The position numbers were made by a program, and so were the translations under genes. Positions 3,750 through 58,381 of a stretch of DNA of 64,000 bases are shown one piece after another (within the stretch, counting starts at the first letter, position 1; each line of letters starts with the position of its first letter). This DNA comes from Dehalococcoidia bacterium (GTDB lineage: Bacteria > Chloroflexota > Dehalococcoidia > Plut-88900). The notes under the pieces are model-generated. The model was not told where the DNA came from, ran no database searches, and was given only the letters and a program-made list of their open reading frames with translations. The stretch lies in NCBI GenBank assembly GCA_963668115.1, contig OY764147.1, forward strand, positions 281,449 through 345,448, in the 5' to 3' direction.

Positions 3750-3862
3750 AGCAAGAGTCCTTTCGGTGTGGATTGGGGTCTCGGGGGTCTGGATGGGGTC
3801 ATGATACTCCGAGGGTTGGGGGTAATCAAACCTGTGCATTCGTCCGGTAGATTGGCGGCACA

Positions 3863-4486
3863 CCGGGCTTTTATTCGGTTGTGGGGTTTCGTTTTCTGTT
3901 TTGTCTGTTGGGTTTTGGGTAGGCGATGGAGGTCCGGGACTCTGATGCAGGATGACTATGGCACCTATGCCGACGCTTCCAGTCCGCCATAGCGGATGTA
4001 TCACATCGGCGTCTGTACTGCCTAATCCCCACACATGCCATTGGGGACTTGCCTGTGTCGAGGGCGTCCCTGGGTGGGGCAATCCGTCCTGCATCAGCGC
4101 TCGACCGCTGAGCGGGACAGCATTCGGCTCGAAGCCGTCACGGGCGGAACGGAGTCCTCCGATGATTACGACGGCGGAGCCGCGTAGGGGCACTGAGGCC
4201 CTGATCCCGGTAACGCCGGGCCGTAAGATTTCGCCGGCGAGTCAATGCCAGCGACATAGGCGTCCCAAGATAGGGAGCACCGATTCGGCAGAGGCCCCTT
4301 AGCGGGGCATACCGCGTAGAGCAGATGGACCTTCCATCGCCTGGATGGTTAGGGAAGGGGCACGGGACCCTTGTAGTGAGGGGGTGACATCCCTGACGTC
4401 TGTGGGATGACATCCTCGGATGGGTCGGGTGGGCTTCCCTGGGTTTTTGGTTCCTCCTTAAGTTATTGGATTAGTGTTCGCGAACG
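3863..4486 (-). ncRNA. Putative large structured ncRNA, family copy 1 (unrecognised)
   Basis: Promoter at 4493-4521; closing helix 4327-4342 with 3921-3935; nested 11-bp helix 3942-3952/4087-4097; motifs shared with copies 2 and 3. Confidence 0.7.
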
Positions 4487-4492
4487 GAGGGT

Positions 4493-4521
4493 ATGATAAC
4501 GCCTTTGCTCAGACGTGTCAA
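4493..4521 (-). promoter_or_regulatory. sigma70-type promoter TTGACA-17-TATCAT driving ncRNA copy 1
   Basis: Minus strand ttgaca cgtctgagcaaaggcgt tatcat; nearly identical at 19285-19313. Confidence 0.85.
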
Positions 4522-4544
4522 GCAAATGTGCGGGTTTGGAGGGA

Positions 4545-4940
4545 ATTCCCTCCGGCCCCTTGGGGAACCCTCACCTTCTGGCCCCCTCTCACGCCATAGG
4601 CGCATCTTCGACCCTTAGGGCCTCTAGTTCAGTACTGGGGAGAAAGGGAGGGAACGGAGGTGGATTGCGAGGATGAAGGTGATTATTCCGGAGGGATGGA
4701 TTCCCGACTACTCGGGAATGACGAAAAGAGGTGGGTGGGGATGATGGGGGTGAGCGGTGGGCTGGCGCAACAGATTCACGCCATAGGCGCACGCCCAGGC
4801 GCATCTTCGACATCTCCGACCTAGCGGGGCATCGGAATGGGAAGGGGAGGGGTGAGTTGCGGTGGTGTAGGTGAGTGTTTCGGAGGGATGGATTCACGCC
4901 ACAGGCGCATCTTCGACCTGCCTCCGCAGGAATGACGAAG
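4545..4940. repeat. Mosaic of REP-like palindromes with nested short inserts
   Basis: GGATTC..GAATGAC hairpins at 4698-4722 and 4890-4936, repeated acgccataggcgcatcttcgac-like unit, conserved gtttcggagggat-like lead-in. Confidence 0.75.
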
Positions 4941-18471: not shown

Positions 18472-18507
18472 TCCGATGCGGCCGTGGGGGCCGTGGAAGG
18501 GGCGGGG

Positions 18508-18657
18508 TTTTGATTGAACGTTGATTGAACATTGATTGAACTCGTAGCTGTTTTGATTGAACGACGCCTGAAGGGGATTTCTGGGGATTTCGCGTGGTGC
18601 AGGGGTGCGGATTTTTGATTGTTTTGCGGTTTCAGGCACGGCTTTGATTGTTTAAGA
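18508..18657. repeat. Iteron-like element with 4x TTGATTGAAC plus 2x TTGATTG, copy A
   Basis: Units at 18510, 18521, 18532, 18553; whole element repeated at 54958-55118. Confidence 0.85.
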
Positions 18658-18738
18658 AACGGGGAGGGAATCCCCACCCATCCCCGCATCCGGGATGGAT
18701 TCCCGACTTCTCGGGAATGACGGAAGTAAGGGCGGGGA

Positions 18739-18763: not shown

Positions 18764-18783
18764 GGGGGAGGAAGAGAGAGGGG

Positions 18784-19278
18784 CCGGGTTGTTTGGTTGT
18801 GGGGTTTGGGTTTGCATTTTGTGTGTTTGGGAGGGGGTTGGCGATGGAGGTCCAGACTGCGCAGCCCCGCTGTTTGGTGGGTCAGGGTCGAGTAAGTCTC
18901 GGTGTGGGGCATACCTGTCCACCGGCGGCGCCCGGTCATAGTGAGGGCGGGGGGCGCCAACCCGCCACCGTCGGCCATGGTGTGGAATGCACCGATGGCA
19001 AGGACGGTGGAGTCCCTGGAGGGCCCTACGGCCCGGTTCCCGCCGTGGGCGGGGTGTTGTGCTTCGCCGGCAAGTTGAAAGCCGGTTACGTAGTGCATCC
19101 TGTTAGGGAGCACCGAGGGTGCAGGGTCTCTATAAGAGACGGCCTGCAGGTGTTAAGTCGATGGACCATCCATCGCCTGGGGGGTTAGGGAAGGGGCACG
19201 GGGACCCGGGTGGGGCCGGGTGGGCTTCCCTGGGTTTCTGGTTTCCTCCTTGTGTTACTGGGTTAATGTTCGCGAACG
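18784..19278 (-). ncRNA. Putative large structured ncRNA, family copy 2 (unrecognised)
   Basis: Promoter 19285-19313; closing helix 19162-19177 with 18840-18854; leader and tail homologous to copy 1; pseudoknot module homologous to copy 3. Confidence 0.7.
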
Positions 19279-19284
19279 GAGGGT

Positions 19285-19313
19285 ATGATAACGCCTTTGC
19301 TCAGGTGTGTCAA
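19285..19313 (-). promoter_or_regulatory. sigma70-type promoter TTGACA-17-TATCAT driving ncRNA copy 2
   Basis: Minus strand ttgaca cacctgagcaaaggcgt tatcat. Confidence 0.85.
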
Positions 19314-19547
19314 GCAAATGTACGGGTTTGGGGGAAAGTTGGAGGTGAGTGGGGATGATGGGGGTGGGTTTAGGCAAGGGGGAGGGGGTGAGTTGCGGGG
19401 TTGTAGGAGGTTGTTTCGGAGGGATGGATTCCCACGGAGGTGGGAATGACGGGTAAAAAGGGTGGGAATGATCCGCCATAGGCGGACAGGCTGGGGTGGG
19501 GGGTTGGGGTGATATACTCGCGGGCACTTTATTCGTGGGACTGGATA

Positions 19548-42044: not shown

Positions 42045-44513
42045 CTAGGCAGGTACGGGCTCCTTGGCCTTTTTGGAAATGAGAGACCTGGCGTTCTTGC
42101 ACTTCGGGTAGCCGGTGCAGGCGATAAATTTACCCCTCCGCCCGACTTTTATGGCCAACGGTTTACCGCATTTTTCGCAGGCTTCATCGATTAGTTCCGG
42201 CTCCGGGCGAGCGGTCTCGCCGGGTAGGGGCCGGGTGTTCTTGCACTTGGGGTAGGTGGTACAGGCGAGGAACTTGCCCCTGCGTCCGGACCTGATGACC
42301 ATGGGGCTATCGCACTTGTCACAGACCTCTGAGGTCTCCTCGGGGATTTCGCGCTCTTCACCGGGAAGGGGTCGGGTGTTTTTGCACTTGGGGTAGGCGG
42401 TGCAAGCGAGGAACTTGCCTCGGCGTCCGGATCTGATGACCATAGGGCTATCGCACTTGTCACAGACCTCGTCAGTCTCCTCAGGGGCTTCGCGTTCTTC
42501 GCCTGGGAGGGGTCGGGCGTTCTTGCATTCGGGGTAGCCGGAGCAGGAGAGGAACTTGCCATAACGTCCGACCTTGATGAGCATGGGGCGTTCGCATTTC
42601 TCGCAGAAGATGTCGGTTTCCTGGGGCTCCTCACCGGGTATCGGTTTGGCGTTCTTGCACTTTGGGTAAGAGCTGCATGAAAGGAACCGGCCGGTCCGCC
42701 CCGACTTGACTTCCATGGGTTCGCCGCACAGATCGCAGGCAATACCGGTAGCCTCGTCGGGGATGGCGTCGCCGGCCTTGTCCAGGGCCTGCTGGAAGGA
42801 CTCATAGAAGTCCCGGATGACCGGGACCCACTCTCGTTCCCCGCGGGAGATCTCATCGAGTTCCTGCTCCATCTCGGCGGTGAAGCCGAGATTTACGATG
42901 TCGGGGAAATGGTCGCTGAGTAGGGAGTTGACTCGAAGCCCGAGTTCCGTCGGGTGGATGCGGCTCTTTTCCTTGTGGATGTACTTGCGGTCCTGGATGG
43001 TAGAGAGGGTGGGAGCGTAGGTGCTAGGCCGACCGATGCCGTTCTCCTCCAATGCCTTGATAAGGGAGGCCTCGGTATAGCGAGGGGGAGGCTGGGTGAA
43101 GTGCTGTTTCTGCTCAAGCCCGAGGAAGTCCAATACCTCTCCGGGGGAGAGGTCGGGGAGGGGGGGCTGCTTGTCGTCGGACCGGTCGTCGGCGTCTTCC
43201 TGGTAGAGGGTGAGGAAGCCGGGGAAGACGGTGACGGAGCCCGTGGCGCGGAACAGGTAAATGGGCGATGCAGATGTGGAGGTCTTGTTTTCGGCCTCTA
43301 TGTGGACCGTGGTCTGGTCGATGAGGGCTGCGCTCATCTGGCTGGCAAGCATGCGCTTCCAGATAAGCTCATATAGCTTCATCTGATCCTTGTCCAGGTA
43401 GACCTGCAGGTAGTCGGGGTCACGGAAGCAGGAGGTGGGGCGGATGGCCTCGTGGGCTTCTTGGGCACCTTTAGCCCGAGCCTTGTAGGCGCGGGGGGAG
43501 GAGGGGACGAACTTGTCGCCGAACTTTTCGGAGATATAGCGCCGGGCCTCGTTGCGGGCCTCGTTGGAGACGGCGGGGGAGTCGGTACGCATGTAGGTTA
43601 TGAGACCGATCTGACCCTCGCTTCCAACTGATAAGCCTTCGTAGAGCTGCTGGGCCACTGCCATGGTCCTTTTGGCGGTGAAGCGGAGCTTACGGCCGGC
43701 TTCCTGTTGGAGGGTGCTGGTGGTGAAGGGAGGGGCGGGCTGTCGCTTGGCTTGCTTACTATCAATCCTGGCGACGGAGTAGTGGGCGCCGTCCAGGGCT
43801 GTGGCTATCTCACTGCTGGTTTTTTCATCGGGTATGGTGAGCTTGCCGCGTTTTCCTTTCTGGTTGTGTAAAACGGCACGGAAGGCGGTTTTCCTGGGGG
43901 ACTTCTGCTTCTTCAGGTCGGCTTCGATAGACCAGTACTCGGTGGGGACGAAGGCGGTGATTTCGGCTTCTCGGTCCGACACCATTCGGAGGGCAGCGGA
44001 CTGGACCCTGCCGGCGGAGAGGCCTTTTTCGAGTTTGCGCCAGAGAAGGGGGCTGAGCCGGTATCCGACCACGCGATCCAGGATGCGTCGGGCCTGCTGG
44101 GCGTCGACGAGGTCCATGTCGATTTCCCGGGGATTGTTGAAGGCCTCGGTGATTGCGCTCTTAGTGATTTCGTGGAAAACGACGCGTCGTATGGGAATGT
44201 TCTTGATCTTGGAGGCTTCGAGGAGGTGCCAAGATATGGCTTCGCCTTCGCGGTCTGGGTCTGTGGCCAAATATACGGCGCTGGCGCTCCTGGCGGCCTT
44301 GGCCAGGTCCTGAACGGTCTTTTTCTTGTCCTTGGGAACCTCGTATGCAGGTTCGAAGTCGCTGGCTACGTTAACTCCGAAGCGGTATTGAGGAAGGTCC
44401 CGGACGTGTCCGAGGGACGCCTTGACGTTGAAGTCCTTGCCCAGGATCTTGCCGATGGTGCGGGCCTTGGCGGGGGATTCTACGATTACCAGTTTTTCAG
44501 TCATTGAATTCAC
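42045..44513 (-). CDS. topA: DNA topoisomerase I with five C-terminal Zn ribbons
   Basis: VESPAKA, DPDREGE, SAGRVQS, ITYMRTD. Confidence 0.97.
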   Translation of the reverse strand: MNSMTEKLVIVESPAKARTIGKILGKDFNVKASLGHVRDLPQYRFGVNVASDFEPAYEVPKDKKKTVQDLAKAARSASAVYLATDPDREGEAISWHLLEASKIKNIPIRRVVFHEITKSAITEAFNNPREIDMDLVDAQQARRILDRVVGYRLSPLLWRKLEKGLSAGRVQSAALRMVSDREAEITAFVPTEYWSIEADLKKQKSPRKTAFRAVLHNQKGKRGKLTIPDEKTSSEIATALDGAHYSVARIDSKQAKRQPAPPFTTSTLQQEAGRKLRFTAKRTMAVAQQLYEGLSVGSEGQIGLITYMRTDSPAVSNEARNEARRYISEKFGDKFVPSSPRAYKARAKGAQEAHEAIRPTSCFRDPDYLQVYLDKDQMKLYELIWKRMLASQMSAALIDQTTVHIEAENKTSTSASPIYLFRATGSVTVFPGFLTLYQEDADDRSDDKQPPLPDLSPGEVLDFLGLEQKQHFTQPPPRYTEASLIKALEENGIGRPSTYAPTLSTIQDRKYIHKEKSRIHPTELGLRVNSLLSDHFPDIVNLGFTAEMEQELDEISRGEREWVPVIRDFYESFQQALDKAGDAIPDEATGIACDLCGEPMEVKSGRTGRFLSCSSYPKCKNAKPIPGEEPQETDIFCEKCERPMLIKVGRYGKFLSCSGYPECKNARPLPGEEREAPEETDEVCDKCDSPMVIRSGRRGKFLACTAYPKCKNTRPLPGEEREIPEETSEVCDKCDSPMVIRSGRRGKFLACTTYPKCKNTRPLPGETARPEPELIDEACEKCGKPLAIKVGRRGKFIACTGYPKCKNARSLISKKAKEPVPA

Positions 44514-53588: not shown

Positions 53589-54803
53589 TTACCCGCCAGT
53601 AATCGCGCCCGAGTCCTGGAGCCGGGTGATGTCTTCCCAGGAGTAGCCCATTTCGAGCAACACCTCTTCGGTGTGCTGGCCGAGCTCGGGGGAGGGGGAC
53701 TTGGGACCGATGTCGGTGTCCTCCAGATGGACGGGAGTGTTCAGGACTTTGTAGGGTCCGTGCTCCGGGTGGTCGAGGGTGCGGAGCATGTCGTTGAGCT
53801 CTACCTGGGGGTCGCTGAGGGCATCGAGCATTGCCCTGACCGGCGCGAATATGACCTGGCCGGCTTCCAAAATGGGGGACCATTCGTCCATAGTTTTCTC
53901 GGCAAAAATGGTGTCGAGGGTGGCGATGGCCTGGGTGGCGTTGGCCTTCCTGTCCTCGATTGAGGCAAATCGGGGGTCGACAATCAGTTCAGGGTGTCCG
54001 ATGGCCTTGCAGAGCTTGTCCCAGTTGGTCCCGTTGTCCGGCATTACCATCAGGAACCAATTGCCATCTGAAGCGGAATAGGTGTTGATCAGTGCGTCTA
54101 CCGCGTCAACGCGGGAGCGTCGAATCAGTGGACGGTTGGAAGCCAGGGCTTCCTGTACGTCGGCGCCTATAACCCACAGGCCCATGTTCATCAATGAGGT
54201 GGTTACCAGGCGTCCCTTTCCCGTACGCTGGCGTTCCAGTATGGCGGCCAGCACGCCTGCCAGGAGGGTGGGGGCGGTGGTGTGGTCTCCCATGCCGTTC
54301 AGTATGTCGATGGGCTCAGGGGAGAGCTGGCTGTAGAGGTGCATCAGGCCGGAGCTGGCCCAGAAAGTCGTGTGATCGAATCCGAGCTTGTCCTTCTTGG
54401 GTCCCCTGGGTCCAAATCCGCTCAGTGCGAGGTAGATGAGCCGGGGGTTTTCGGAGGCGAGCTGTTCGTAGGTGAGGCCAAATTTCTCCATTCGCCTGGG
54501 GAGAAGGTTGGTTACGAAGACATCTGCCTCACTGGCCAATCTCTGTACGATTTCGGAGGCTTCGGGTTTGTTGAGGTCCAGGGAGATTCCCCGTTTGCCG
54601 CGGTTGTCCATTTCGAAGGCGTAGTTTATGGGGAACTCGACGCCGTAGGTGCCGTCGGAGGACAACCACCTGTAGGGGTCGCCGCCGAGGGGTTCGACCT
54701 TTATGACGTCGGCGCCCATGTCGGCCATGAGGGCGGCGCAGCAGGGCACCGCGAGGAAATTGGCAACTTCGACGACTTTGATTCCGGTGAGGGGGCCAGC
54801 CAT
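53589..54803 (-). CDS. CaiB/BaiF family III CoA-transferase
   Basis: MAGPLTGIKV, GADVIKVEP, NRGKR, PELGQHT. Confidence 0.92.
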   Translation of the reverse strand: MAGPLTGIKVVEVANFLAVPCCAALMADMGADVIKVEPLGGDPYRWLSSDGTYGVEFPINYAFEMDNRGKRGISLDLNKPEASEIVQRLASEADVFVTNLLPRRMEKFGLTYEQLASENPRLIYLALSGFGPRGPKKDKLGFDHTTFWASSGLMHLYSQLSPEPIDILNGMGDHTTAPTLLAGVLAAILERQRTGKGRLVTTSLMNMGLWVIGADVQEALASNRPLIRRSRVDAVDALINTYSASDGNWFLMVMPDNGTNWDKLCKAIGHPELIVDPRFASIEDRKANATQAIATLDTIFAEKTMDEWSPILEAGQVIFAPVRAMLDALSDPQVELNDMLRTLDHPEHGPYKVLNTPVHLEDTDIGPKSPSPELGQHTEEVLLEMGYSWEDITRLQDSGAITGG

Positions 54804-54957
54804 TCCGTCCTCCGACTCGGGTGCAGGACCAATCAATGGAGACCGGCACCACACTAGGTTTGGGAGATTTTACGGATGAGGCGGAAGTTTGCACAAGTTA
54901 CCGTTCCGGTCCGGCGGGATGACGGGACGCGGGTTTTTCTTGATTTGTGGGGGTGGT

Positions 54958-55118
54958 TTTTTGATTGAACGTTGATTGAAGTTTGATTGAACTCGTAGCT
55001 GTTTTGATTGAACGACGCCTGAAGGGATTTCCGGGGAATTCGCGTGTCGCAGAGGGCAAGGGGATGGGGTGGGTTTTTGATTGTTTTGCGATTTCAGGCA
55101 CGACTTTGATTGTTTAAG
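54958..55118. repeat. Iteron-like TTGATTGAAC element, copy B
   Basis: Units at 54961, 54972, 54983, 55004; homologous to 18508-18657. Confidence 0.85.
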
Positions 55119-55193
55119 GGACTGGGGAAAAACCCTCACCCCCTTTATCCCAATCTCCCTTAGGGTCATTAAGGGATATGGGGAGAGAAGAAC

Positions 55194-55233
55194 AGAGGCA
55201 GAGGTTGGCGCTTTTGCGCCAACCTCTGCCTCT
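55194..55233. repeat. Perfect 18-bp inverted repeat with 4-nt loop
   Basis: agaggcagaggttggcgc tttt gcgccaacctctgcctct. Confidence 0.9.
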
Positions 55234-55459
55234 AGTTCAGTACTGGGGAGAGGGGACGGGGCCACGCCCCACCCGACACCCGGGAGGGCAGGTCTCGTGC
55301 CTGCCTCTACAGAGGAGGACGGGAGAGGGGAGGGGATGGAGTGAGTTGCGGGGTTGTAGGTGATCGTTTCGGAGGGATGGATTCCCCACGACTTCTCGGG
55401 GGCAGGCTCTGCCTCCGCAGGAATGACGGTGGGAAGGGCGAGTATGACGAAGAAGGAAG

Positions 55460-56290
55460 GGAGGGGGTGGAAGGTCCCGGACGGTTTGTGCAGGAAGTCG
55501 GCGACGCCTGTACCGATGCGGGGTGTCCGCCCCTGGGGACGGTCCACACCAGCGTCGAATCTGCGACAGCCCCATACTTCCGAGAGGGTGTGGACGAGAC
55601 GCGAGAAATTCTCGCTCTGGGGCAGCCTCGCCCACCGGAAGTGCTCTACCACCCTGAGGGATGGGAGCGGAGACCCGTGACCGCCGTTCGTAGTCGGAAG
55701 CTCTCCGGTTGTGACGACGGTGGAATCCTTGCCCCATACTTCCGATAGGGTATGGACGAGACGCGAGAAACTCTCGCTCTGGGGCAGCCTCGCCCACCGG
55801 AAGTGCTCTACCATCCTGAGGGATGGGAGCGGAGACCCGTGACCGGCGTTCATAGACCGGAACATGCCGATGGTGACGACGGTGGAATCCGAGAAGGGTT
55901 CTGTGGCCCGATGGAGCAGCTTAACACCGTGCTCCTGAGCGTCGCCTGACGGGGCGAAACCGTTGCGACCTATGAGTGGGGCGCTCACCTGGCAGTTGCC
56001 CTTGAAGAGGGTCTGCCTTGATTTGTCCGGGGACATTCCATGTGAGGGGCGGGACGGTGATTGATCGCTGCGAAGGACGAGGCGTTGGGCCTTTGGGCAG
56101 CGCTTGTAGTGGGTGTTGGGATGCAGGATGTGAGGTGGAAAGAGAGTGAAGAGGAGGCGCGTGTCGTGGGCCGGGCGTTGGGGTGCCGCTCGGGTGAGAC
56201 GGGGCCTATGTAGGCCGGTGCGGCTCATGGGACTCCTTTGTTCCTTTTCCTTTCCTGTGATGGGCACCGAGGTATGGGATCGGCGTCCTG
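55460..56290 (-). ncRNA. Putative large structured ncRNA, family copy 3, with duplicated 162-nt module
   Basis: Promoter 56297-56325; closing helix about 56026-56040 with about 55468-55482; motif identity with copy 2. Confidence 0.65.
55569..55890. repeat. Tandem duplication, 162-bp period
   Basis: Units start at 55569 and 55731; near-identical except for a variable hairpin. Confidence 0.93.
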
Positions 56291-56296
56291 GTGGGT

Positions 56297-56325
56297 AGTA
56301 TAGCACGAGGGTTCAGATAGTGCAA
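56297..56325 (-). promoter_or_regulatory. sigma70-type promoter TTGCAC-17-TATACT (extended -10) driving ncRNA copy 3
   Basis: Minus strand ttgcac tatctgaaccctcgtgc tatact. Confidence 0.75.
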
Positions 56326-56354
56326 ATGTTCAATTTAGAAGGGCTGGAGGGGGA

Positions 56355-56547
56355 GGCGTGAGCGGGCGGGGTTGTAGGTGAGTGTTTCGGAGGGATGGAT
56401 TCACGCCAATGGCGCATCTTCGACCCACCTCCGTGGGAATGACGGGTTAAAGGGGCGGGAATGACGGGGGAAGGGAGTCGGGGTGAGTGGCGAGGTCAGG
56501 GGCGAGTGTTTCGGAGGGATGGATTCCGGCTCTGGGGCCGGAATGAC
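56355..56547. repeat. REP mosaic (two GGATTC..GAATGAC units with conserved lead-in)
   Basis: Hairpins at 56397-56443 (with 22-nt insert) and 56521-56547. Confidence 0.75.
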
Positions 56548-56587
56548 GGAGTAAGGTGGGTGGGGATGGCCGTGAGGGATGAAGGCT

Positions 56588-58381
56588 CTAGGTCCTTGCG
56601 GCGATGTCTGAGTGGAGCATTTCTATGATGGCGGGGAGGGGCGTGGGGCCGAGGTTTTCGCCGCTGCGTTTTCGGACGGAGAGGGTATCGGCGGCGATTT
56701 CTTTGTCGCCTACGATCATCATGTAGGGGACCTTGTTGAGCTGGGCGTCGCGGATCTTGCGGTTCATACGCTCGCTTCGGTCGTCGACCTCCACCCGGAG
56801 CCCTGATGCGGACATTTTCGCGGCGGCGGCCTGGCAGTAATCGACGTGGCGGTCGGTGATGGGGACTATAGAGGCCTGGACGGGGGCAAGCCAGACGGGG
56901 AATGCTCCGCCGTAGTGCTCGATGAGCACGCCCATGAAGCGTTCCATGGAGCCCAGGATGGCCCGGTGCACCATGTATGGCCTGTGCTCCCGACCGTCCT
57001 CGCCGATGTAGGAGAGGTCGAAGCGGCGGGGGAGGTTGAAGTCGAACTGGACGGTGGTGCACTGCCAGTCCCGACCGATGGCATCCTCTATTTTCACGTC
57101 GATCTTCGGGCCGTAGAAGGCTCCCCCTCCCGAGTCGACCTTGTAGTCCAGGCCCATCTCTTCAAGGGTGTTGCGGAGGGCGCTGGTGGCGGTATCCCAT
57201 TCGGAAAGGTCGCCGACGTACTTTTCGGGTCGGTCTGAGAGGTAGATCTGGTAGTCGCTGAAGCCGAAGGCCCCGAGGAGGCGGAAGGTGAGGTCCAGGA
57301 CGCCTCGGACTTCGTCTTCAAGCTGGTCCGGGCGGCAGAAGATATGGGCGTCGTCCTGGGTGAAACCCCTGACCCGGAGCAGGCCGTGGAGGACGCCCGT
57401 CCGTTCGTAGCGGTAGACGGTGCCCAGCTCTGCCAGCCGCATGGGCAGCTCCCGGTAGCTTCGGAGCGATGAGCGGTACATGAGGATGTGGAAGGGGCAG
57501 TTCATGGGTTTCAGGTAGTAGTCCTGGTCGTCTATCTCCAGGGGGGCGTACATGTTTTCGCTGTAGAACTGGAGGTGGCCGCTGGTCTCCCAGAGCCGGG
57601 ACTTGCCGATGTGGGGCGAATAGACCAGGGAGTAGCCGGAGTCCAGGTGAAGCTCCCGCCAGAAGTCTTCGACGAGGCTACGGACCCGGGCGCCCTTCGG
57701 GTGCCAGCAGATCAGGCCGGCCCCGAGCTCGTTGTGGACGGTGAAGAGGCCGAGGTCTCTGCCCAGCTTGCGATGGTCTCGCTTGGCGGCCTCTTCGAGG
57801 CGGTTCAGGTAAGTGTCGAGGGCGTCCTGTGACTCGAAGGCGGTGCCGTAGATGCGCTGGAGCATGGGGCGGTTTTCATCGCCGCGCCAGTAGGCGCCGG
57901 CGACGTTCAAGAGCTTGAAGGCGGGCACCCGGCCGGTTGACTCTACGTGGGGGCCGTTGCAGAGGTCCGAAAAGTCGCCGTGGGTGTAGACGCCGAGGGT
58001 GTCGTCCTGGATGGCTTCGATGATTTCGAGCTTGAAGGGCTGGTCGTTGAAGAGTTTATTGGCCTCGGGGCGGGGGACCTGGGTGCGGTGGAAGGGAAGG
58101 TCGGCGGCGATGGTGTCGGCCATCTTCTTCTCGATGGCGGGGAGGTCTTCGTCAGTGAGGGCGCGCGGCAGGTCAAAGTCGTAGTAGAAGCCATCCTCGG
58201 TGGGGGGGCCGATGGCGAACTTGGCCTCGGGGAAGATGGAGCGGACGGCGTCGGCCATGATATGGGAGGCGGAGTGTCGGATGGACTCGCGGCGAAGGGC
58301 GAGGGGGTTTTCCTCGGCGGGGGTTTTGCGGGACTCTAAGGCATATTCGATGCCGCTGGGGTCTGTGATGTCGGCGGGCAC
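56588..58381 (-). CDS. thrS: Threonine--tRNA ligase
   Basis: RHSASH, GAYWRG, KPMNCP, RVRGFTQDDAH, AFYGPKID. Confidence 0.97.
   Translation of the reverse strand: MPADITDPSGIEYALESRKTPAEENPLALRRESIRHSASHIMADAVRSIFPEAKFAIGPPTEDGFYYDFDLPRALTDEDLPAIEKKMADTIAADLPFHRTQVPRPEANKLFNDQPFKLEIIEAIQDDTLGVYTHGDFSDLCNGPHVESTGRVPAFKLLNVAGAYWRGDENRPMLQRIYGTAFESQDALDTYLNRLEEAAKRDHRKLGRDLGLFTVHNELGAGLICWHPKGARVRSLVEDFWRELHLDSGYSLVYSPHIGKSRLWETSGHLQFYSENMYAPLEIDDQDYYLKPMNCPFHILMYRSSLRSYRELPMRLAELGTVYRYERTGVLHGLLRVRGFTQDDAHIFCRPDQLEDEVRGVLDLTFRLLGAFGFSDYQIYLSDRPEKYVGDLSEWDTATSALRNTLEEMGLDYKVDSGGGAFYGPKIDVKIEDAIGRDWQCTTVQFDFNLPRRFDLSYIGEDGREHRPYMVHRAILGSMERFMGVLIEHYGGAFPVWLAPVQASIVPITDRHVDYCQAAAAKMSASGLRVEVDDRSERMNRKIRDAQLNKVPYMMIVGDKEIAADTLSVRKRSGENLGPTPLPAIIEMLHSDIAART

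Follow-up and report, generated by a model that had tools for sequence, protein, structure and literature searches.

What is the 162-nucleotide (nt) module that stands twice in tandem in an element of a Dehalococcoidia genome, and what allows it to multiply? The element lies on the minus strand of contig OY764147.1, in a 64,000-nt stretch (positions 281,449 to 345,448) that is referred to here as the window, and is the third of three related copies found there (copies 1–3). An earlier note on this DNA had taken the three copies for one RNA family and the module of copy 3 for an autonomous, non-coding folding domain. Here, we compare copy 3 with its relatives in the same genome, in the eight other genomes of the genus and in sampled genomes of other genera. 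We conclude with high confidence that the module consists of 54 codons, duplicated in tandem with the reading frame intact and equivalent to amino acids (aa) 284–337 of a terminase-large-subunit-like (TerL-like) protein, in a cassette that occurs in many copies and is restricted to one genus. It is just as probable that selection maintains the promoter, the Shine–Dalgarno (SD) sequence and ATG, the unbroken reading frame and the base-paired blocks of this cassette, and not the encoded residues or the stop codon.

The copy 3 locus

All parts of copy 3 are on the minus strand. A sequence scan placed its promoter at 56326–56297, with a −35 box TTTGCA, an 18-nt spacer and a TG-extended −10 box TATACT. 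It is the sole sigma-70-like site in 54600–56700, where shuffled sequences lead one to expect 0.3, so that the extended −10 promoter described in the earlier note was found again. Over the five copies of this type in the genome, the promoter is kept as two sequence variants. The SD sequence AAGGAG and the ATG follow at 56238–56226 (ATG at 56228–56226), a position that is conserved across copies. The open reading frame (ORF) that starts at this ATG runs from 56228 to 54870, through the whole element, the repetitive extragenic palindromic (REP) hairpins and a terminator, and ends 16 nt ahead of the start codon of the next gene (54854).

The two arms of the proposed closing helix could be read directly from the sequence: the 5′ arm, GGAAUGUCCCCGGAC, at 56039–56025 and the 3′ arm, GUCCGGGACCUUCC, at 55482–55469. 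Family-wide conservation stops just past the 3′ arm. Between the arms lie unit A (55731–55892) and unit B (55569–55730) of the repeat. Tandem Repeats Finder (TRF) reported a period of 162 nt over 55569–55890, with 2.0 copies and 91% matches, and a second repeat search found the identical pair. About 235 nt past the 3′ arm, and still within the open frame, is an intrinsic-terminator-like hairpin with a 19-bp stem and a T-run (55234–55193); the same hairpin is also read in frame in several other copies.

Searches against known families gave little. With Rfam 15 at its gathering thresholds, the whole window contained one tRNA only, and 55000–57000 searched at E-values up to 10 gave only sub-threshold chance matches; two of these fall inside the element, both on the plus strand, at 14.8 bits (gathering threshold 145.1) and 14.2 bits (gathering threshold 39). 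When every long frame of copies 1–3 was scanned with Pfam and PHROG models, no real match resulted. Logan contigs of four runs were short fragments, none of which spanned the unit junction with 31 letters on each side, and were uninformative on the duplication. An assembly artefact of this locus is excluded by the presence of the 162-nt repeat at five loci in this genome, four with two units and one with three, and in 21 of 55 copies overall.

Origin of the repeated unit

The host genome (G000) is a single contig of 3.01 Mb with 60% GC and is 92.7% complete by markers. An nhmmer profile built from the two units of copy 3 found 30 units genome-wide, of which four were located within long ORFs (E = 1e-35 to 1e-38). 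These four ORFs, which we named TerL-like genes T1 to T4, measure 491–552 aa from stop to stop and carry Walker-type motifs (QGGKNE, LLEIDE) together with the nuclease motifs of terminase large subunits. They match PHROG 5909, 5713 and 38 with E-values of 2e-6 to 4e-4, and PF17289 below its cut-off. Each is isolated among housekeeping genes, behind a 125-codon ORF that has its own promoter. Upstream of T1 (L033:720–1180), the 125-codon ORF has no family match and is possibly a small-subunit analogue; its promoter is of the TTGACA/TATCAT type, and the promoter region is partly duplicated about 340 nt upstream.

The frame of copy 3 shares several TerL-like motifs: DSTVVT.G, PSL.VVEHF.W, VWGCRR and G.GVA.FL. 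When the 462-aa T1 protein was searched against the locus, the homologous stretch, which was also apparent from DNA-level matches, extended over window 55449–56123 (G000:336897–337571, minus strand), with aa 196–337 and aa 284–370 matching separately (E = 8e-17 and 2e-15). The overlap of the two matches defines the duplicated unit as aa 284–337, or 54 codons. From this homology, the copy 3 element, from its SD sequence and ATG to the 3′ arm at 55469, very probably descends from aa ≈196–370 of a TerL-like gene.

The fragment covers the linker and the first half of the RNase-H-like nuclease domain of TerL. It begins at about aa 196, downstream of the Walker motifs of the ATPase, and ends at about aa 370, short of the GHDDF motif of the gene, and the acidic motif GIDLAGE has been altered to FAPSGDA. 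We considered and rejected a functional terminase, since the cassette has no ATPase domain, half a nuclease, an altered acidic motif and no Pfam or PHROG match. The likeness to the TerL of tailed phages and gene transfer agents (PF17289 Terminase_6C; PHROG 5909, 5713 and 38) is thus one of sequence descent from the TerL-like gene of the host, and the cassette differs from TerL in being free of amino-acid constraint and in not being recognised by any hidden Markov model. We also rejected the possibility that the cassettes are simple internal-deletion derivatives of a larger, TerL-carrying element, because the flanks of T1–T4 have no promoter, leader or tail in common with copies 1–3.

The reading frame is maintained without amino-acid constraint

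The frame was followed through 55 copy-3-type elements from nine genomes, collected from BLAST matches that had both the 5′ and the 3′ domain as well as one or more units, a selection that is blind to the state of the ORF. Anchored on the last unit, the frame is stop-free in 53 of the 55 copies over 600–1090 nt, compared with averages of 5.3 and 3.5 stops per copy in the other two frames. Taking the best frame at each locus, 54 copies are stop-free; the remaining one, L049, has three stops, and L030 is shifted near its end, yet open. By pattern search, the start codon is preceded by GGAG or AGGA at a common position in 44 of the 55 copies, and in an alignment of 27 copies (A3) the start column contains ATG in 26 and GTG in one. 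Given 1114 distinct single-base variants over 283 codon columns, ≈26 variants that create a stop would be expected, and none was present in 49 aligned ORFs. (This zero is partly by construction, as the ORFs were cut at the first stop; the independent count is the 53 of 55.) As a control for composition, 60 cassettes of the copy-1/2 type, described below, were mostly stop-containing in all three frames after their SD-like motif.

The duplications themselves obey the frame. TRF found tandem periods of 162 nt (21 loci), 165, 144, 141, 96 and 78 nt in the family, all of them multiples of three. Since the boundaries and periods vary while the phase does not, it is the reading frame, and not the boundary of an RNA domain, that filters the duplications. 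The claim that a non-coding, autonomous module has been multiplied is therefore not supported: the unit consists of 54 codons of a terminase-derived frame, and the other duplications have different boundaries.

The encoded residues show a different picture. The median pairwise ratio of nonsynonymous to synonymous divergence (dN/dS) of the cassettes was 0.78 (interquartile range 0.70–0.88; 1120 pairs; median dS 0.31); six pairs of TerL-like genes gave 0.10–0.39. Column entropy at the three codon positions was 0.54/0.57/0.58 overall, and flat both in unpaired columns (0.658/0.671/0.657) and in paired columns (0.153/0.232/0.156). With this dN/dS ratio, and with variation that is not concentrated at third positions, the cassettes do not display the purifying selection of a protein gene. 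The stop codon is not conserved either: the frame continues for 17–215 aa into flanking repeats that are unrelated, or beyond the end of the retrieved sequence. The copies do carry the sequence attributes of a translated ORF, namely an SD sequence, a start codon and a frame that is free of stops across diverged copies, from which translation itself is predicted.

Fifteen copy-3-type loci (L001–L004, L006 and L023–L032) were available with 1.5-kb flanks. In five of these, including copy 3 with its distance of 16 nt, no more than 20 nt separate the stop of the frame from the start of an ORF of 120 aa or more on the same strand. This proximity may reflect coupling, or merely the change in composition at gene starts.

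Base pairing in the cassette RNA

The local helices named in the earlier note exist in both units of copy 3. To evaluate them, we aligned 84 units (80 of cassettes and four of T1–T4); in this alignment, 92.3% of cells pair, versus 36–52% when the partners are slid by 1–3 columns. Helix P_b has two weak pairs, for which 41 and 32 of the 82 rows are unpaired. Both partners change at ten pairs, versus 5.8 in shuffles. Compensatory changes were observed at pair 95–151 (UA 48, CG 32), pair 117–131 (GC 40, CG 22, unpaired 15), pair 72–79 (CG 64, AU 5) and pair 67–81 (AU 76, GC 2). G–U pairs are frequent on the minus strand (UG 43/UA 31, AU 58/GU 24 and GC 72/GU 10 at three pairs), as fits a minus-strand RNA and not the opposite strand or a DNA cruciform. 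The difference between U–A and U–G in the CCAUCC hairpin of the two units, to which attention had been drawn before, is real in the sequences, and most of the local helices proposed for the minus strand are supported by the conserved pairing, with its G–U pairs and few compensatory changes. In 27 one-unit elements, the closing helix of 13 pairs is almost invariant, with CG in 15 and UG in 11 at one pair.

The proposed pseudoknot fared less well. Pairing between GCCCC and GGGGC is possible, and both sides are invariant or nearly so. This invariance includes the parent genes, in which the two sides are codons for Pro-His and Trp-Gly, and for the same reason covariation is absent; in the RNAalifold structure, the pairing is nested and not pseudoknotted. 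The independent folding of each unit was likewise not borne out, as the minimum free energy (MFE) fold of copy 3 pairs strands of one unit with those of the other. Fold z-scores, calculated from 20 shuffles, were −2.2 for copy 3, −4.2 for a one-unit copy, −3.8 for the T1 segment and −1.9 for the T3 segment. The GC skew of 0.40–0.47 on the plus strand means that the first ≈200 nt of the cassette RNA are strongly C-rich; the units are balanced.

The closing helix appears to have been inherited. Each of the 19 full-length TerL-like genes of the genus contains its arms, at the codons for (D/N)GRFL and G(P/T/S)SIV; GGA-AGG-TTC is used by 17 of these genes and TCC-ATC-GT(C/A) by every one. Segments of T1 and T3 fold with the closing helix, which is longer in the cassettes (14 pairs versus ≈12). 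In the GRF motif of the 5′ arm, the arginine codon is AGG in 19 of 19 genes, and the variants of the 3′ arm (CCT, ACC, TCT and CCC codons) each stay complementary with a one-base bulge. The invariant AGG and the complementary variants hint at a constraint at the nucleotide level within a coding gene. In the TerL-like genes of other genera, the duplex energies of the two 30-nt stretches ranged from −13 to −39 kcal/mol, with no common register evident. Because of this, and because synonymous diversity in the TerL-like genes is not reduced in the homologous region (see Discussion), support for a functional fold of the parent mRNA is limited to the arms.

Distribution and turnover in the genus

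Copy-3-type elements occur in all eight of the other genomes of the genus, and gave no DNA-level match in any of 32 sampled genomes of other genera. The 162-nt repeat is found in genomes G000, G002, G005, G006 and G008. At the orthologous locus upstream of a 421-aa gene, G008 has a one-unit cassette and the host genome a two-unit cassette, which shows that the number of units changes in place. Six of the eight relatives have no cassette within 1.5 kb of the orthologous site. In G006, the orthologous flank as fetched is without a cassette, and a less decayed cassette lies ≈2 kb upstream of the orthologous gene. No cleanly alignable empty site was found at this locus, and no terminal inverted repeats or target duplications were seen at the family boundaries in five aligned copies.

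At five loci in G006, G007 and G008, the cassette promoter and 5′ part are joined to a sequence with 81–85% identity to TerL aa 194–374. In the three loci of which the frame was read out, L084 (G008), L086 (G007) and L087 (G006), the SD sequence and the first ≈60 degenerate codons are joined, without a shift of frame, to a near-T1 tract (aa ≈262–385). Such mosaics indicate that genes and cassettes exchange sequence, and have done so recently. Reverse transcriptase (PF00078) had no match in the 3.01-Mb genome, with its completeness of 92.7%; copying from the template repeat of a diversity-generating retroelement (DGR) or from a retron msr/msd was excluded on this ground.

Copies 1 and 2

Copies 1 and 2 (window 3860–4560 and 18780–19350, minus strand) are members of a larger cassette family with 61 loci genome-wide. 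The promoter and 5′ module has 61 matches and the 3′ tail 61, of which 60 pair up. The promoter is near consensus (TTGACA-17-TATCAT), the 5′ module of ≈115 nt contains an AAGGAGG motif without a start codon, and the 3′ tail is C/A-rich. Between the modules is a cargo of 224–753 nt that belongs to one of about 12 swappable subfamilies. The union of copies 1, 2 and 3 in one RNA family thus holds for a homologous core (nhmmer E ≈ 1e-29), a TerL-derived fragment with ≈65–72% DNA identity, and not for the remainder, as copies 1 and 2 have another promoter and 5′ module, another 3′ tail and no open frame. The match between 55859–55890 and 18984–19015 of copy 2 was recounted by hand at 24 of 32 positions, as had been stated. 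Terminase homology was detected by tblastn in 12 of 60 copy-1/2-type cargos; for the other 48, tblastx and blastn searches for source genes against the masked genome gave only weak, low-complexity-like matches.

Downstream, copies 3 and 2 also have in common a block of ≈190 nt (window 54950–55141 and 18499–18679) that is 82–89% alike and contains four to five short repeats of the TTCAATCAA type on the minus strand, resembling a binding-site array. A tandem array of five ≈141-nt units, 61–87% alike, at window 42073–42771 is unrelated to copy 3.

A phage-head gene cluster

A compact phage-head cluster (L120:8244–12241; G000:C1:2016243–2020240, minus strand) adjoins a divergent copy-3-type cassette at 2020694. 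It encodes a scaffold-like protein of 142 aa (weak match), a major head protein (PHROG 212, E = 1.5e-73; PF05065), an SU10-type adaptor and a 663-aa protein without a family match. No PF04860 portal was found. The capsid gene was present in 22 and the TerL-like gene in 24 of 33 sampled genera, in which both are usually single-copy and often 3–12 kb apart. This pattern suggests that the two genes are parts of an old, domesticated head-packaging module of Dehalococcoidia, resembling a gene transfer agent.

Discussion

A sequence in which the frame and the fold are kept and the protein sequence is not fits no described kind of bacterial element. Tentatively, and aware that it may well be wrong, we favor a reading of the sequence in which the product that matters is a translated, structured RNA that mimics a stretch of TerL mRNA. 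The strong promoter would make this RNA, which would compete for, or present, a binder of the fold, be it an RNase, a subunit of the terminase or some other protein. The sole reason to keep translation would be that ribosomes shield the C-rich 5′ part, allowing the full-length transcript to be made and to survive; Rho is encoded in the genome. The genome also contains tmRNA. Slippage or unequal exchange would yield tandem duplications of many sizes, and only the in-frame ones would persist. Transcripts that are both translated and structured (SgrS, RNAIII), or that arise from a gene and mimic the parent mRNA (eukaryotic pseudogene decoys), offer partial likenesses. However, the peptides of SgrS and RNAIII are conserved and functional, while that of the cassette is not, and the decoy role of the cassette is our inference. 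We know of no bacterial multi-copy mRNA mimic.

Several points weigh against such a mimic. A search for RNA sequencing runs that contain this stretch listed none, so that expression, translation and the RNA ends are all deduced from sequence, and the binding partner is hypothetical. The passage of ribosomes would unfold the structure on which the action is meant to depend, and the appeal to Rho is reasoning, not a result. The difference in mean entropy between paired and unpaired columns (0.18 versus 0.69) is partly circular, as RNAalifold favors conserved columns. The covariation term of RNAalifold is just −1.4 and −2.9 kcal/mol, most stems being simply invariant, and the compensatory changes may represent one or two events each. 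In the TerL-like genes, synonymous diversity is 0.38 in the homologous region versus 0.30 elsewhere, that is, not reduced.

It is less likely, though still worth serious consideration, that the cassettes encode a fast-evolving protein family: truncated, repeat-bearing fragments of the terminase nuclease that act as decoys or inhibitors against phages or against the cell's own packaging machine. Diversifying selection would then account for a dN/dS near 1. The conserved SD sequence and ATG, the frame open in 53–54 of 55 copies and the in-frame nature of every duplication are all in keeping with a protein product, conflict genes typically occur in many copies and vary in their number of repeats, and the less decayed copies are still 81–85% identical to TerL aa 194–374. 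Against this, a signal of codon position is absent even from the unpaired columns, and synonymous positions in the helices are conserved as much as the others. There is no conserved stop, so that each copy has a different, random tail of 17–215 aa; the product is not recognised by any Pfam or PHROG model; the first acidic motif, GIDLAGE, is changed, and the fragment ends before the C-terminal HDD motif.

We consider a mobile promoter followed by a long, translated leader to be a weaker candidate, and improbable. In such a leader, ribosomes would pass the REP hairpins and the terminator and prevent termination, the promoter would drive the downstream gene and the fold would tune the passage of ribosomes. 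The arrangement at copy 3, where the frame crosses the terminator hairpin and ends 16 nt before the next same-strand gene, is what this predicts; the stop lies close to a same-strand ORF start in five of the 15 flanked loci, and a same-strand ORF follows in at least eight of the 15. In the other ten, however, the stop is 33–271 nt away or the neighbor is ambiguous, and the downstream ORFs were called mechanically only. Stops are expected to cluster near gene starts in any case, because the composition changes there, and the copy-1/2-type cassettes are equally abundant without an open frame.

Slightly more doubtful again is a role at the level of DNA, either as a pac-like site recognised by the terminase or as a recombination donor for the TerL-like genes, spread around the chromosome. 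The arms do form an inverted repeat in 19 of 19 TerL-like genes of the genus, the near-T1 tracts of L084, L086 and L087 record exchange between gene and cassette, and the conserved capsid and adaptor cluster is suggestive of a head-packaging system that works. Frames that stay open while the amino acids are unconstrained are also a feature of silent donor cassettes elsewhere: pilS of Neisseria, vls of Borrelia and the msp2 pseudogenes of Anaplasma comprise many in-frame, stop-free gene fragments with variable amino acids that exchange tracts with a full gene. These donors are not known to have a promoter, an SD sequence or a start codon and serve a surface antigen, whereas the cassettes possess each of these signals and come from the gene of an intracellular enzyme. 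A DNA site has no need of a promoter, SD sequence or ATG, yet these are the best-conserved parts of the cassette. The G–U pairs would be A–C mismatches on the other strand or in a cruciform, conversion into the gene would be harmful, as the cassettes have lost residues that the enzyme needs, and DGR- or retron-type copying is excluded by the lack of PF00078 matches.

The original proposal, a purely non-coding RNA in which a 162-nt, autonomous, pseudoknotted domain with a ligand-binding, catalytic or protein-docking function has been multiplied, is now very unlikely. The local helices are conserved, with 92% of cells paired, the unit is present one, two or three times, and in the absence of an Rfam match the family would be new. 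Large structured bacterial RNAs have been discovered by comparative genomics, among them OLE, GOLLD, ROOL, raiA and HEARO/omega RNA, and the cassette resembles this class in its length of several hundred nt, its own promoter, its closing helix, its conserved stems with G–U pairs and its restriction to a single lineage. But RNAs of this class are not known to carry a conserved reading frame, whereas the cassette keeps an SD sequence, an ATG and a stop-free frame, derives from a protein gene and occurs in dozens of copies per genome. A non-coding domain leaves unexplained why the frame is preserved and why all duplications are in frame whatever their boundaries. In addition, the repeats of 96 nt and 78 nt fail to cover the proposed domain, both strands of the pseudoknot lack variation and stem from codons that the parent gene already had, and unit A pairs with unit B in the MFE fold of copy 3.

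Decaying junk, that is, recent, functionless remnants of a multi-copy gene that were dispersed as pseudogene pieces by recombination between the surrounding REP repeats, would suit the near-neutral amino-acid evolution, the REP-rich flanks and the lack of the element within 1.5 kb of the orthologous site in six of eight relatives, but is hardly tenable given that copies ≈25–30% diverged (median dS 0.31) are stop-free in 53–54 of 55 cases, against ≈26 stop-creating variants expected, and that promoter, SD sequence, ATG and helices are conserved in all nine genomes of the genus. Among repeats, Correia elements of Neisseria, other miniature inverted-repeat transposable elements (MITEs) and arrays of bacterial interspersed mosaic elements (BIMEs) or REPs are similar in having dozens of intergenic copies, an outward or own promoter and differences in presence between relatives. 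The cassette differs from them in its size of 0.6–1.1 kb, its open frame and its origin from a gene fragment instead of a transposon, and no terminal inverted repeats were seen.

Returning to the mRNA mimic, one could go further and regard the cassettes as the RNA arm of a class-wide, domesticated head-and-packaging system that comprises the TerL-like gene and the capsid, adaptor and scaffold genes and occurs in 22–24 of the 33 sampled genera: a structured piece of terminase mRNA copied dozens of times in one genus, behind strong promoters, to titrate the terminase or its regulator, or to guide the terminase to chromosomal sites, with translation as a chaperone of the transcript only. This extension is speculative, and we think it will probably prove incorrect. 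If true, the cassettes would form a novel kind of regulatory RNA in bacteria, in which a gene fragment has become an mRNA mimic, and would provide a lead to a gene-transfer-agent-like system in Dehalococcoidia. A full-text literature search, at the level of search results, returned no description of such elements, of the phage-head cluster or of gene transfer agents in Dehalococcoidia.

If the less far-reaching reading of a translated RNA mimic holds, a fragment of a protein gene has become an expressed, multi-copy element in which selection sees only the RNA fold and the translatability, a combination that lies outside the usual classes of gene, pseudogene, non-coding RNA and transposon. Annotation should heed this, since the choice of tool would decide whether such a locus is called a hypothetical protein or a novel RNA. 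The cassette would also be a natural test of the interplay between Rho, ribosomes and RNA structure on a C-rich transcript. The finding also points to a conserved terminase and capsid module, with a possible part in gene transfer or defence, across the Dehalococcoidia, an uncultured and environmentally important class.

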